Of a DNA stretch of 64,000 nt, positions 221 to 56,247 are shown piece by piece; position 1 is the first letter of the stretch, and every line of letters begins with the position of its first letter. The stretch comes from Eledone cirrhosa. Lineage: Eukaryota. Under the pieces are notes generated by a model. It was not told the origin of the DNA and did not search any database. It was given only the letters and a program-made list of their open reading frames with translations. Location: positions 75,020,001-75,084,000 of the forward strand of contig OZ024740.1 in assembly GCA_964016885.1 (NCBI GenBank), written 5' to 3'. Both the position numbers and the translations under genes were made by a program.

Positions 221-396
221 GGAAAAGAGTCAGGACCCAGACGGCTCATCCGAACTGTTCGGATCTAGGTGTCGAAACGGCCGGAGTTCAGCCGTCGAGG
301 TGCTGACTCTTTTCCTATTACCTACTCTACTACCCTAAGTATCGAGTACTATGGTGCGTTATGGTCCACCTGGTTTTTTATCACACTTTCTTTGTT
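221..396 (+). mobile_element. Fold-back repeat, family C, between two (TA)n tracts
   Basis: GGAAAAGAGTCAG...CTGACTCTTTTCC inverted arms around TCCGAACTGTTCGGA. Related copies at 1406-1603, 15455-15711, 29243-30068. Confidence 0.75.
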
Positions 397-414
397 ATAT
401 ATATATATATATAT

Positions 415-752
415 AACCAAAGATTAGTATGGTTCGTTGATTACTCAATGAATACAATTTTACAATAGATTAGAAGCACTCAACCGTGAAGTTTTCCTGG
501 AGTTTTTAATATTATTCAAAATATTAACAAATAAAAATATTCTCATAATCAAAATATATACTTTATTATTGGTATTACTACCAATACTGGAATTTAATAA
601 TCAAGACCGTAGCGGTATGTCATATACCAAATCATATATTTTGTCTGATGAGGACGTACTGAAAAAACAACACAGTACCTCTGAAATATTTATAATAAAG
701 TATATATTTTGATTATGAGAATATTTTTCATTTGTTAATATTTTGAATAATA
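415..752. mobile_element. Fold-back HHR element, family D
   Basis: ~510-570 is the reverse complement of ~692-752; (TA)n on both sides. Diverged relative at ~13261-13550. Confidence 0.75.
636..703 (+). ncRNA. Type I hammerhead ribozyme (family D)
   Basis: TATTTTGT-CTGATGA(645)-GGACGTACTG...CAGTACCTCT-GAAAT-ATTT-ATA-ATAAAGTA. Stems I and II pair; predicted cleavage after AUA. Confidence 0.7.
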
Positions 753-1405
753 TATATATATATATATATATATATAAACAAATTAAAAGACTGAGAAATG
801 AGAAAGTAATGTGATGTGTTGGAATATATGATAAATCAAATGTAATGAAACGAATGGAAAATGATAAAAAACAAACAGGACAATACAGAACGGGAAGATA
901 AAACTGGAAACATTAACAACGAAACATTTCAGTCTCCAGCCGAGCACGTAAACTCACGATTTTTGGTCAGGAAACCATAGCTTAGCGTCCTATTTTTTGC
1001 CAGGAAACCATAGCTTAACGTCCTATCATGACGATAGTTCTAAATTAAAGCTGCCGTTTGGTAGAGATGAACAGTACGAAGGAAAGATAACTATTATAGG
1101 TGCGTTCAATTTATAGACATAAAACAAGTAAATTTGACGAACATAAAAATTGTGAAGAAACACCTGGAGTAAAATCAATCATGGACAGGTAGAAACAAAA
1201 GGGGTCTATACCGATTTATTACACACACACGCGCGCGCGCGCACACACAACACATATTTACACGTACAGCCACAAAGATACACATACACCCTCACTCTCA
1301 AACGCACACACATAAACACACGCACACTCATATAGGATTATATGTGTGTATATGTATGTATGCATGTATGTATGCATGGATATATATATATATATTTATA
1401 TATAT

Positions 1406-1603
1406 GAAAGGAGTCAGGACCTCGACGGCTGAGCTCCGGCCGTTTCTACAGCTAGATCCGAACTGTTCGGAGCTAGCTGTCGAAACGGCCGGAGCTCAGC
1501 TGTCGAGGTCCTGACTCTTTTCCTATTACCCACTCTACAACCCTACGTATTGAGTACTCTGGTGCGTTATGGTCCACCTGGTATCTTACCACACTCTCTT
1601 TGT
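1406..1603 (+). mobile_element. Family C fold-back copy
   Basis: Near-perfect palindrome ~1406-1524 centred on TCCGAACTGTTCGGA, followed by a tail with TTGAGTACT (1550) and (TA)n. Confidence 0.75.
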
Positions 1604-1639
1604 TATATAATATATATATATATATATATATATATATAT

Positions 1640-2050
1640 TTAGGTTTGTTGGTTCACCAATGGATAGAACTGGTCATTCCGTATGGTCAACCTCGATGTA
1701 GTATTAGGGAGAGCACTCGACGTAATGCAACTCACCCGTCTTCGTTTGTATTGTTGGTGGTGCGAGTACGGAGTTAATTATTATAAAATAATAGGAGGTT
1801 GGACTGGTGTAATTCCTTAAAAGGTTTATTATACTAGGCCGGCTGACCGGGCTAGAAGCTGCTAAATGTTCGGCCGCTCTCGTGTCTCTGCTTTTCAGCC
1901 TCATGGATTTTGTCTATTATATTCCTTTGTTATATTTTGAATACCTGATGATGTCACCGGATTCATACTGAACCGGGTCACTGAAATGATCATAGTATAA
2001 TAAACCTTTTAAGGAATTACACCAGTCCAGCCTCCTGTTATTTTATAAAA
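1640..2050. mobile_element. Fold-back HHR element
   Basis: ~1779-1836 is the inverse of ~1993-2050; (TA)n on both sides. Confidence 0.7.
1941..1998 (+). ncRNA. Type I hammerhead ribozyme
   Basis: ATAC-CTGATGA(1945)-...CCGG...CCGG...-GAAAT-GATC-ATA-GTAT. Palindromic stem III ATGATCAT; AATAAA follows. Confidence 0.7.
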
Positions 2051-53019: not shown

Positions 53020-53412
53020 ATACAGGGAGTGTAGGTTCACCGGGTGAGCACTCCATGTTTAGGTTCACTTCAGTGTCGAGGTGTAGAGCTAGACAGAGTG
53101 TATTATAGTGAAAAGATAACAAGGACGATTGGTTACTCCTTCATTACATTTATTGGTTGGTAACGTGCGTTTCGCCACTGATCAGCTCAAGGTTCGATCT
53201 GTATCGATCTTACCCGACTTTGTAATCCGCGGCTCGTCGGACCCCTTGTAATGTTAGTAGAATATTTTCTACTAACATTACAAGGGGTCCGACGAGCCGC
53301 GGATTACAAAGTCGGGTCAGATCGAACCTTGAGCTGATCAGTGGCGAAACGCGCGTCACCAACCAATAAATGTAATGAAGGAGTAACCAAACGTCCTTGT
53401 TATCTTTTCACT
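53020..53412. mobile_element. Fold-back element with variant HHR at 53286-53360 (+)
   Basis: Palindrome 53105-53412. GGT-CCGACGA-GCCGC...GTGGC-GAAAC-GCGC-GTC-ACC, then AATAAA. Diverged relative at ~14990-15125. Confidence 0.75.
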
Positions 53413-53821
53413 ATATATATATATATATATCTGTAGTTGTGTGTGTGTGTGTGTGTGTGTGTGTGTGTGTGTGTGTGTGTGTGTGTGTGTGTGTGTGTGT
53501 GTGTGTGTTTGAAAAAACCACACACGTGAAAGTCGATTAAATCAAATGCCGCCTGTGCTTGAAGCTTTTTAAGTAAAGAAAGGCCTTGCGCTGGACTAAT
53601 CCCACTCGCTGAAAAACGGTGACAGGTATCCAATAATACAGGTGAATATCATTGACTGACATCGAGTTGCAGATTTTACATCAGCGTTTCCCTTCTACTA
53701 GAAGGAAGTCCTAACAAGAACTACAGGTCTCTCATTCCTGGTGGGCTAACCACGCGTTCGGGCACTTAACCAAGTATTTCATCGACCCCGTAAATATACA
53801 TACAGATAAACACATGAAAAA

Positions 53822-54011
53822 AATATGCGTGTGTGTGTATACATAGGCACTCACACATGTACAGATATATATAACACGCCTGGAAATATGCGTGTGTGTG
53901 TATACATAGGCACTCACACATGTACAGATATATATAACACGCCTGGAAATATGCGTGTGTGTGTATACATAGGCACTCACACATGTACAGATATATATAA
54001 CACGCCTGGAA
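53822..54011. repeat. 63-bp unit, three tandem copies
   Basis: Direct reading. Confidence 0.9.
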
Positions 54012-54719
54012 AGCTTGTTATAGAAAGCAAGAAATAATTAATCAGTGGAGTACATTTCTCACTATTTCATATAAGAGTACCCTAGTTTCAGCAACAAAGA
54101 ACCAGCCACACCACATCCCATTCCATTGGACATACTCGCCTCATTTAGCCACACGTAGTTTCTAATACATTCGCATACACACATACACGCACAAACACAC
54201 ACACATACAGAGAGGCACGCTCGCAAACAGATCACACATAAATATATCCGTGTATGTATACACCCATATCAAATTGCTTATATATATACATATAATATTT
54301 TTTCCTACTCCAGAAACTGATATATCCAATGTTTTACATCTGGATACAGAGAAATACCCCTCCCCCAGCACCACTGCTGCCCCCTCTCTCTCTCTCTTTA
54401 TCTCTCTCTCTCTTTCTCTATCTCTTTCTTCAAATTATCCACAGATTCACGTGCATACATAAGCACGCACACACATATATATGCATAGATACATATATAG
54501 ACACATATATATGCATATATATGTGTATATATTTATATATATATATACACACACAAGCATACATACACACACACACACACACGTATATATATATATGTAT
54601 ATGACTGATAAGAAAGTGTTACACTGTGGTAGATATATATAAAGGGCAAAGGATGACAAATAAAACAAAACAAATAATGTTTTTACCTAGTATATTTCAA
54701 CATAATATTTCAGGGCTAT

Positions 54720-55140
54720 AACTAGTTAGGGTAGTGTAATAGTAGTAGACAATAGAAAATAGTAACCTAAGTAAACGTGAAAGAACAGCCGAACTGCCAC
54801 TGTCATCGCCTCCATCTCTCCGTATGGTGAGCAAATGGAGTCCCATGTACTGGCCTCCCCACAGCCTCGGCGGACAGAATCGAGAAAGCGTTTCCCTGGA
54901 GGATGTTAAGGGAGATGCGCTGGAATAGCTATTCCAGCTCGCGAGGCTCACACCTGTGGCTAGTCAGCTCAGTGACTATGGTGGTGAGTAGGGAGGTAGC
55001 CCTAGGTCGAAGGACATCAGAAGTCTCCACTGCCAAGGGCACGACCGCCAACCTGTCGGAGATCGACCGGTACTTGGAGAGTTTCGCCTCCTCAGCCCGA
55101 CGTGCAGCAGAACCTGGGTTAGTCGCAGACTGCACCAGGT
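54720..55140 (-). mobile_element. CRE-like non-LTR 3' fragment
   Basis: GSAARRAEEAKLSKYRSISDRLAVVPLAVETS...LFQRISLNILQGNA; homologous to 3994-4385. Confidence 0.7.
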
Positions 55141-55839
55141 TGCGGCATTGTACAGCTTTTCAGAAACTTATTAATTTATTATATATCTCACAATGCTTCA
55201 CATATATATATATATATATATATATATATATATATATATATATATATATATATTTATATATATTAGAATTGGTGCTCTGAAATAGCGATATATATATGAA
55301 TGTACATACAGTGTATTTTGCAATATACTGTATGCTTAATTAAAAGCATTTCGAAGACCTTACGAAAGAGAGCTCTGTCAGCTTTATCTCCCTTGTTTGC
55401 TGAAAATTTAAAATAAGTGAGACTGTCACTACTCTAAAACAATAGCGTAAGGTCTTCGAAATGCTTTTAATTAAGCATACAGTTTATTGCAAAATACACT
55501 GTATGTACATTCATATATATATCGCTATTTCAGAGCACCAATTCCAATTTTCAATTTCTGCTTGACCGGCAACCGCTCTGTATAATCAGTTCCTGATTAT
55601 TACTAGAATTCTATAAGAATCCAACATTCATGATTTTCAGCAAACAGGTGGAGTACTTAGCTTTGATAAGTACGAAAAAGTACGAAACAGAGCTCTGTCA
55701 GCTTTATCTCCCTTGTTTGCTGAAAATTTAAAGTAAGTGAGACTGTCACTACTCTAAAACAATAGCGTAAGGTCTTCGAAATGCTTTTAATTAAGCATAC
55801 AGTGTATTGCAAAATATACATTTATATATATATATATAT

Positions 55840-56247
55840 AATTGGTGGTGGATGTTTATAACGTCCGTATACGGTAGGCCGTTTTAGCACTCGATGCTCT
55901 CATAGAGCAGAGTATGCTATCACAGAAAAAAAGAGAATCAGTGTTGCGACGAATGGAATTTATTGGACATATTACAATCGTTCCTCTGGCGACCAGCTCG
56001 AGGCACGATTGATGTGATGATCGAACCTGACTCTGAAAATCGCAAGGTCCTCAGATACGTCTTGATTCTACGAAGCAGATTTTCCTAATGATTCGTAGAA
56101 TCAAGACGTATCTGAGAACCTTGCGATTTTCAAAGTCAGGTTCGAATATCACATCGATCGTGCCTCGAGCTGGTCGCCAGAGAAACGATTGTAATATGTC
56201 CAATAAATTCCATTCGTCGCAACACTGATTCTCTTTTTTTCTGTGAT
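55840..56247. mobile_element. Second family F fold-back
   Basis: Same arms, ends and inversion centre as 27494-27912. Confidence 0.8.

Follow-up and report, generated by a model that had tools for sequence, protein, structure and literature searches.

A bulged hairpin shared across Hydra-clade Penelope-like elements lies beside the points at which their copies join (TA)n repeats

How Penelope-like elements (PLEs) choose internal start sites, and why only some of their copies bear a so-called tail, is an open question. For Hydra-clade PLEs, the element class, its hammerhead ribozyme (HHR), its targeting of (TA)n repeats and the layout of an inverted pseudo-LTR (pLTR) plus tail are already known (PMC8557442; PMC3846280; PMC4209133; PMC7229834; 10.64898/2026.07.22.740005). 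In the Poseidon element PAc, the reverse transcriptase (RT) initiates internally in vitro at two sites bounding the tail, and a protein-binding element was presumed to lie near the start of the open reading frame (ORF), its motif being left unidentified (PMC11167929). Here we analyzed a 64,000-nucleotide stretch of the Eledone cirrhosa genome (assembly GCA_964016885.1, contig OZ024740.1, positions 75,020,001 to 75,084,000; referred to as the window), in which a preliminary description had listed 15 copies of a conserved YYGAGTRCT-like motif close to (TA)n runs. We find that this motif, rather than being a linear signal, forms the 3′ arm of a bulged hairpin, and that it represents a real, clade-wide structured signal of Hydra-clade PLEs that is apparently undescribed.

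Among RNA stem-loops that serve an RT, hepadnavirus epsilon acts as a template from its own bulge, with a protein primer. The boundary stem-loops of telomerase RNA and of the DRT10 noncoding RNA fix the stretch copied by a TERT-related RT, with a short alignment sequence that pairs with the primer; they are located 5′ of the template, where they halt synthesis (PMC12632851). The Hydra hairpin, by contrast, is placed 3′ of its template and would define where copying begins. Hydra elements resemble PAc in that two RNA-internal starts would bound the tail and the target is AT-rich, but PAc initiates inside an AC-rich stem-loop within the ORF, while the twin hairpin of Hydra elements sits in the 5′ untranslated region, 3′ of each end, with TA microhomology (PMC11167929).

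The autonomous element in the window shares with the published Hydra clade an RWK-type motif, DKT, a CxCx5C linker and a short single ORF, as well as an HHR in the pLTR, (TA)n insertion and tandem or inverted pLTRs; the tails seen here are about 55 to 110 nt long, compared with 30 to 40 nt reported for the clade (PMC8557442). The sections of that report consulted here contain no description of the hairpin motif, and its supplement returns 0 matches for “hairpin” or “stem-loop.” Animal non-LTR retrozymes and fold-back PLE insertions are likewise noncoding, HHR-bearing pLTR derivatives with an inverted pLTR plus tail; the window elements are dispersed fold-backs in (TA)n rather than the tandem monomers of retrozymes, and the hairpin goes unnamed in the portions of those accounts that we consulted (10.64898/2026.07.22.740005; PMC3846280). 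No description of it was found in searches of the open-access PMC and bioRxiv literature.

The motif as the 3′ arm of a bulged hairpin

The YYGAGTRCT-like 9-mers are present at all 15 of the previously listed coordinates and strands, 24 to 72 nt 5′ of a (TA)n run. These sites had been ascribed to many unrelated families; we count about 12, with sites 342, 1550 and 15570 belonging to one family and 27540 and 55886 to another. The order given for them (HHR, AATAAA, motif, and then (TA)n) holds at only part of the sites: a sense-strand HHR core lies 5′ of the motif at 5 of the 15 (one of them 379 nt away and doubtful), an antisense core lies on the inverted arm at 3 more, and AATAAA is present at 9. 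AATAAA was rejected as a component of the signal because only 3 of 20 families from other organisms place it between HHR and motif. Two features had been overlooked: the upstream partner arm of the motif and a site at 50109 (−) in the autonomous element.

The full hairpin has the layout RCTC, variable stem, loop, stem, UN bulge, GAGY, followed by a conserved (A/G/T)CT. In the window, the partner arm ACTC occurs 5′ of GAGT, with the inner stem closing just before the 2-nt bulge, at 14 of 15 sites; two of these 14 parsed hairpins have a single inner pair. The one miss is the motif at 6438..6446 (−), which lacks a pairing upstream arm. For statistics, we assembled a sample of 1.264 Mb, consisting of the 64-kb window and 120 stretches of 10 kb each from the same 3.0-Gb genome. 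A descriptor of the hairpin returned 99 hits in this sample, compared with 7 to 17 when the sequence was shuffled locally three times. A (TA)n run follows 15 to 100 nt to the 3′ side of 82 of the 99, and the hairpins group into 23 clusters. In the 16 families of this genome that are linked to (TA)n, the outer pair is A-U in 13 and G-C in 3. Because MAFFT misplaced the 5′ arms, pairs were counted by anchored scripts; a relaxed clustering, which joined 54 of 79 segments into one cluster, served for variants only. An Rfam scan gave no match at the gathering score among the best 150 of 308 hits, most of which were repeat-driven miRNA models.

Positional enrichment of the strict motif, on which the preliminary description had staked its claim, stands against some controls and not against another. 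After families were collapsed, YYGAGTRCT lies 15 to 95 nt before the run in 17 of 874 (TA)n-flank clusters; when only the first member of each cluster is counted, 11 carry it, against a shuffle mean of 1.0 (maximum, 4). The reverse-complement motif was found in 4 clusters, as was the motif itself at 120 to 200 nt. Flanks of other microsatellites carry the motif in 4 of 654 cases, and the difference from (TA)n flanks is not significant (Fisher P = 0.30); this control is contaminated, since the hairpin itself is present in 3 of the 4 motif-bearing flanks, and 2 of these 3 belong to families that also occur at (TA)n. Of the 30 7-mers with the strongest enrichment in the initial 664 kb of the sample, GAGTGCT is the sole non-microsatellite word. 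Across the whole genome, at least 36,810 forward-strand matches to the hairpin-plus-(TA)n pattern were counted, compared with 26 to its reversal; overlapping ends inflate the count on the reverse strand. Searching the genome for the motif in tandem pairs returned mostly satellites.

The hairpin is carried by the pLTR of an element whose 503-amino-acid frame, 48459-49970 (−), encodes a PLE RT. By its diagnostic motifs, this autonomous element is a Hydra-clade PLE. In place of GxKF/Y there is an RWK-type motif (RWR in predicted protein P0002, SWR in P0001, and RMRWK in most relatives of alignment A1), and DKG is modified to DKT (LSDKTNN in both proteins). Read by eye, P0002 has a CxCx5C linker (CSCPKPEAC) followed by a C-terminal endonuclease (EN) domain, VIY...YVG, with no internal cysteine pair; a Pfam search matched no family for either protein. 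Full-length copies have the structure pLTR-ORF-pLTR, with an HHR core and a hairpin in both pLTRs, and the core is predicted in both pLTRs of copies L007, L009 and L025. The repeat unit of L007 is about 2.58 kb and ends in (TA)n, in agreement with the Hydra clade (<3 kb, (TA)n insertion). In the window, the ORF occupies 48043..49922 (−), with its RT broken by a stop at 48459 and its EN part interrupted. The 5′ pLTR contains a predicted minimal HHR core at 50182..50203 (−), hairpin 1 with a 1-nt U bulge at 50109..50131 (−), an internal TATATA at 50066..50071 (−) and a degenerate candidate hairpin 2 at 49964..50063 (−). An initial assignment to Naiad, and the SECIS reading tied to it, were ruled out by the DKT, the RWK-type motif and the C-terminal EN; traits of Naiad and Chlamys (N-terminal EN, DKA, and no canonical HHR) are absent, and the ORF begins at the RT N terminus.

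In this genome, the hairpin is physically linked to a Hydra ORF in four families: that of the window, L129 (via L303/L304, with an ACTC/GAGT hairpin and 2-nt bulge), L127 (via L300/L340) and L081:3387, which has two GCTC/GAGC hairpins before the ATG. Flanks recovered in the L081- and L037-family searches ended short of the pLTRs. Most short families in the window, including the commonest, F1, which lacks an HHR core, were found without a link to an ORF. Neptune-type elements, which are marked by a CxxC finger plus two cysteines inside GIY-YIG, likewise end in (TA)n in this genome, and the motif was found downstream in 0 of 27 parsed GIY-YIG loci (of 30 fetched), a set in which 24 of 27 have internal GIY-YIG cysteines, few families are represented and 4 of 27 have no TA end within the locus. 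The proposal of a cis signal shared by PLE-type families is supported within the Hydra clade, not for PLEs at large. No relatives of the element were found in viral contigs.

Twin hairpins and covariation in other organisms

An alignment of 34 of 121 proteins retrieved 77 metagenome and 13 genome-contig loci, which presumably represent animal DNA in those assemblies. Hydra-clade elements occur in 13 prokaryotic genome records (L228-L240), mostly metagenome-assembled genomes, probably as host DNA contamination. The region between HHR and ATG could be parsed by script in 36 of the 90 loci, yielding 21 families. Seventeen of these carry two hairpins in this region, two carry one, one was scored as having three (a double count) and one carries none. 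The total of 39 hairpins compares with 0.41 in shuffled sequences and 7 on the reverse strand. In 18 families, hairpin 1 is located 42 to 62 nt past the HHR core, hairpin 2 follows another 57 to 83 nt on and the ATG comes 12 to 57 nt later. The consensus outside this genome is GCTC...GAGC-ACT, and the outer pair is G-C in all 38 cases, compared with mostly A-U here; one locus, L230, has a variant outer stem, GCAC/GTGC, and a GCCC/GGGC variant was also seen.

We measured covariation without a pairing filter by fixing the nearest upstream GCTC by sequence only; one occurs within 60 nt upstream of 38 of the 39 motifs. When the bulge is set at 2 nt, all 38 of 38 hairpins preserve the first inner pair (25 C-G, 13 U-A; permutation mean, 29.4, with 0 of 5,000 permutations reaching the observed value), while bulges of 0, 1 and 3 nt give 1, 0 and 4 pairs of 38, respectively. 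The second inner pair is kept in 25 of 34 (permutation mean, 14.4; 0/5,000) and the third in 20 of 26 (permutation mean, 11.0; 1/5,000); the fourth is no better than permutation (P = 0.14). Owing to common descent among the families, these permutation values overstate significance. In all 38 hairpins, U is the first base of the bulge, and G-U pairs outnumber A-C pairs 6:1.

A comparison with published Hydra consensus sequences from other animals, which the preliminary description had suggested, bears out the signal: among the six sequences of File S7 (PMC8557442), the hairpin is seen by eye in four, namely, Hydra-2_Amil, Hydra-1_Ajap (twice), Hydra-2_Ajap and Hydra-1_Crog, the last having variant forms in which the third pair is changed and the bulge U is missing. 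The Hydra-1_Amil consensus stops about 55 nt past the HHR, where hairpin 1 would follow.

Copy ends, the tail and the probable role of the hairpin

In fold-back elements, the inverted arm stops just before the hairpin. Relative to the hairpin, the TA run starts at −8 in 11 of 14 TA-ending F1 copies, at −7/−8 in 10 of 15 copies of family F2b and at −8/−6 in 22 of 26 copies of the window Hydra family, and four smaller families show similar offsets. At the distal end of the window family, 18 of 21 copies stop at the internal TATATA, 8 nt before candidate hairpin 2, which is seen in 15 copies that continue past this point. Contigs from two public runs of one sample, which bear on junctions and not on expression, pass from the element into (TA)n at L007:1319 and 1386, which coincide with these two end points. 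Eleven junctions from other organisms could be matched to a copy that continues past them, and every one lies 6 to 12 nt before hairpin 1 or 2 (about seven families; five junctions from one). In the L127 family, 18 of 26 copies share a single end site, near which no motif is visible; the prediction, set beforehand, that a hairpin would follow was borne out in two of five continuing copies, where it starts 6 nt past the end, the other three entering unrelated repeats. The sequence upstream of hairpin 1 is rich in TA, with TAT/ATA at −12 to −3 in 17 of 18 families (background, 0.32 per 10-mer).

Because copies join (TA)n 6 to 12 nt upstream of either hairpin 1 or hairpin 2, the stretch between the two end points matches the PLE tail. 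The previously noted spacing of 25 to 75 nt from motif to (TA)n is the spacer to a second, uncopied hairpin, and the fixed distance is that from the end to the hairpin 6 to 12 nt downstream.

Pairing with covariation, two hairpins per pLTR, ends beside either hairpin and TA-rich internal sequence at those ends are observed. Together, they suggest that the hairpin is probably a binding site in the element RNA that positions the RT to start cDNA at a UA patch 6 to 12 nt upstream. A tandem pLTR-ORF-pLTR RNA would be transcribed and possibly trimmed by the hammerhead. The RT-EN protein would then bind a hairpin, probably in the major groove at the step formed by the bulged U, G-C and A-U; the GIY-YIG domain would nick genomic (TA)n, and the freed 3′ end would anneal to the UA patch beside the bound hairpin. 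Synthesis would proceed away from that hairpin, which would therefore be left uncopied. A start at hairpin 1 would give a tail-less end, whereas a start at hairpin 2 would copy hairpin 1 and make the tail, so that one hairpin would be seen 25 to 75 nt before (TA)n. Since the short fold-back families keep the hairpin signal, they may have been mobilized in trans or may represent truncated ends. Of the three functions suggested for the motif in the preliminary description, RT recognition or measurement of the initiation site fits best, although through a base-paired hairpin and not a linear motif; promoter activity is not supported.

A more specific form of this proposal, which we regard as close to an even chance but somewhat on the doubtful side, is that a pair of TAR-like arginine-sandwich hairpins, found across the clade, serves Hydra elements as a ruler: the telomerase-related RT would dock on either one and prime about 8 nt upstream on the UA patch. 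TAR, too, continues with GAGC/GCUC. As in the arginine sandwiches of HIV TAR and 7SK (U23.A27-U38 and U40.A43-U66), a bulged U, in a 1- or 2-nt bulge, follows a paired base and precedes G-C and A-U, but the loop of the Hydra hairpin lies on the opposite side of the bulge, and the likeness is one of secondary structure only (PMC6189040). This geometry (bulged U before G-C and A-U, with a paired base before the bulge) is present in 38 of 38 hairpins. The step is not universal, because the GCAC/GTGC and GCCC/GGGC variants break the U.A-U triple. An RxRW segment is kept in Hydra proteins, with R37 in 34 of 34; that a residue of this segment might contact the hairpin bulge is speculation.

Several observations weigh against the proposed role in positioning the RT. 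The 6:1 ratio of G-U to A-C pairs favors the sense strand and leaves RNA and single-stranded DNA (ssDNA) undivided. Single-sequence folds are weak, with z ≤ −1.5 in 4 of 12, and the ACUC/GAGU stem appears in 10 of 12 minimum-free-energy (MFE) folds. Of 22 family representatives, 7 have concordant end offsets, 5 are scattered and 10 have no informative copy; the offset itself is loose (6 to 12 nt) and blurred by TA microhomology, and TAT/ATA lies upstream of the second hairpin in only 10 of 18 families. Hairpin 2 of the window family (TCTC-CAG, loop, CTG-(A)-GAGC) was identified post hoc and has a mismatched outer pair and a loop of about 95 nt, and the MFE fold of this family instead pairs the two 3′ arms with each other (z = +0.68), as a result of the quasi-palindromic sequence of the 3′ arm. 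One continuing copy of the L129 family has GCTC past the distal end and no matching 3′ arm, the Hydra-1_Obim consensus has no clear hairpin by eye, and L230 hairpin 1, L234 and Hydra-1_Crog, which lack the A-U pair, break the arginine-sandwich pattern.

The main competing explanation, which we consider unlikely, is that the hairpin forms in sense-strand ssDNA and is recognized by the GIY-YIG nuclease, which would cut a few bases upstream, so that the ends would be cut sites in a DNA intermediate. SsnA, a bacterial GIY-YIG enzyme, binds ssDNA hairpins, and its cutting depends on a C just past the palindrome and on upstream bases (PMC11893778); in the Hydra hairpin, the stem is always followed by a C, and the ends are upstream of it. 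The Drosophila virilis Penelope EN needed tail sequence to cut (as cited in PMC11167929), and the tail has been ascribed to resolution by EN (Craig 2021, PMC8557442). On the other hand, in vitro work on the only PLE examined in this way places RT start sites on RNA at the tail boundaries (PMC11167929), the hairpins are weak (often one inner pair plus a U-rich loop) and G-U tolerant, and a cut of the sense strand alone leaves the internal TA microhomology unexplained. Other alternatives fit worse than this one. If the hairpins were RNA sites for cis-capture, packaging or translational control, the ends could be set merely by UA patches in an AT-rich pLTR; the position of hairpin 2, 12 to 57 nt before the ATG, the TA-like internal sequence at every end and the copies that end at internal TA patches far from any hairpin (L308-L311) agree with this. 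However, TA patches are frequent in pLTRs (0.32 per 10-mer), yet ends cluster 6 to 12 nt before a hairpin in unrelated families, and noncoding fold-back families retain the hairpin, making this explanation more unlikely still.

We consider it very improbable that GAG-YR-CTC is a quasi-palindromic double-stranded DNA site bound by a dimeric protein or a promoter factor. Promoters are presumed to reside in pLTRs (PMC11167929), and in 23 of 39 motifs WCT is followed by C, giving a near-palindrome; this final C is missing in the other 16, and a linear site predicts neither the upstream RCTC arm, the compensatory outer pair nor the covarying inner stem with its fixed 2-nt register. That the pattern reflects chance, or common ancestry among a handful of families, without any function is the least credible explanation of all: several window sites do belong to the same family and the control with other microsatellites was not significant, but 21 mutually unalignable families hold 39 hairpins compared with 0.41 in shuffles, and the excess of hairpins over shuffles in this genome's sample (99 versus 7 to 17) and the covariation point the same way.

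If Hydra elements do use the hairpin as a ruler, it would represent the first RT-recognition RNA element to be defined in any PLE, would explain the tail and would provide a portable signal of about 30 nt with which any RNA cargo could be directed into (TA)n repeats. Among mobile elements, PLEs have the RTs most closely related to telomerase, and a structured RNA that positions priming therefore bears on the origin of template-defining RNAs. Since the hairpin is short, occurs twice per pLTR and lies beside both end points, the choice of start site is open to direct mutagenesis. In practice, the hairpin is diagnostic for Hydra-derived noncoding repeats and their boundaries.

Hairpins and related elements in the window

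Family F1 is represented by hairpins at 324..350 (+), 1532..1558 (+) and 15570..15596 (−). The first, ACTC-TACT-loop-AGTA-(TC)-GAGT.ACT, lies in the tail of the fold-back element 221-395. All three F1 copies (221-395, 1405-1605 and 15525-15711) keep the hairpin and the fold-back arm and have no canonical hammerhead core. A second family comprises 27540..27567 (−), ACTC-TGCTCT-atg-AGAGCA-(TC)-GAGT.GCT, and 55886..55913 (−), in which the other arm ends at the (TA)n at 56246, about 7 nt before ACTC. Similarly, at 53047..53099 (−), ACTC-TGT-long loop-ACA-(TG)-GAGT.GCT, the other arm ends at the (TA)n at 53412, 8 nt before ACTC.

The inner stem is degenerate (1 pair) at 475..503 (−), the tail of fold-back element 416-749, which has an HHR core at 645 (+) on the other arm, and is damaged in the window copy at 14652..14679 (−); the stem is 4 bp in family members L059 and L061. 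At 1712..1774 (−), ACTC-CGTA-long loop-TACG-(TC)-GAGT.GCT, the long loop encloses a second ACTC...GAGT pair, and the nested ACTC gives an alternative register. The hairpin at 13320..13348 (−) has a sense HHR core 132 nt upstream, and that at 42321..42343 (+), ACTC-CAA-taat-TTG-(TT)-GAGT.GCT, lies in fold-back element 41972-42403. The remaining hairpins are ACTC-TGC-tat-GTA-(TT)-GAGT.ACC at 12889..12910 (−), ACTC-CGTC-loop-GACG-(TT)-GAGT.GCT at 41008..41054 (−) and ACTC-TGGG-loop-CCTA-(TT)-GAGT.ACG at 42538..42574 (−).

Other elements of the window end at (TA)n without the motif. An HHR-bearing family at 128 (plus flank), 13040-13194, 45384-45534 and 56270-56419 ends at (TA)n about 90 nt past the core and is motif-less. 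HHR-bearing fold-back copies of another family, at 10003-10421, 11500-11870, 13630-13960, 24541-25405 and 47550-48045, also have (TA)n ends, and no GAGTRCT hairpin was noticed in them. The long inverted repeat at 5132-6322, which by eye resembles the 3′ region of the Neptune-type loci L297 and L299, abuts (TA)n with no motif.

A young Hydra family is represented in the window at 40541-40725 and elsewhere by L335-L344; its copies are 98 to 99% alike, carry a variant hammerhead core (CAGAAGA instead of CTGANGA) and are mostly tail-less, ending 6 nt before hairpin 1. In copy L007, the 3′ arms of hairpins 1 and 2 (1339-1347 and about 1484-1492) can pair mutually, a possible alternative state. Finally, contig C1 contains, at about 14234975-14239273, a 58-bp tandem satellite whose unit consists of a TATATA spacer, the F1 hairpin and about 20 bases; here a tail-sized unit is amplified alone, with a few inverted units.

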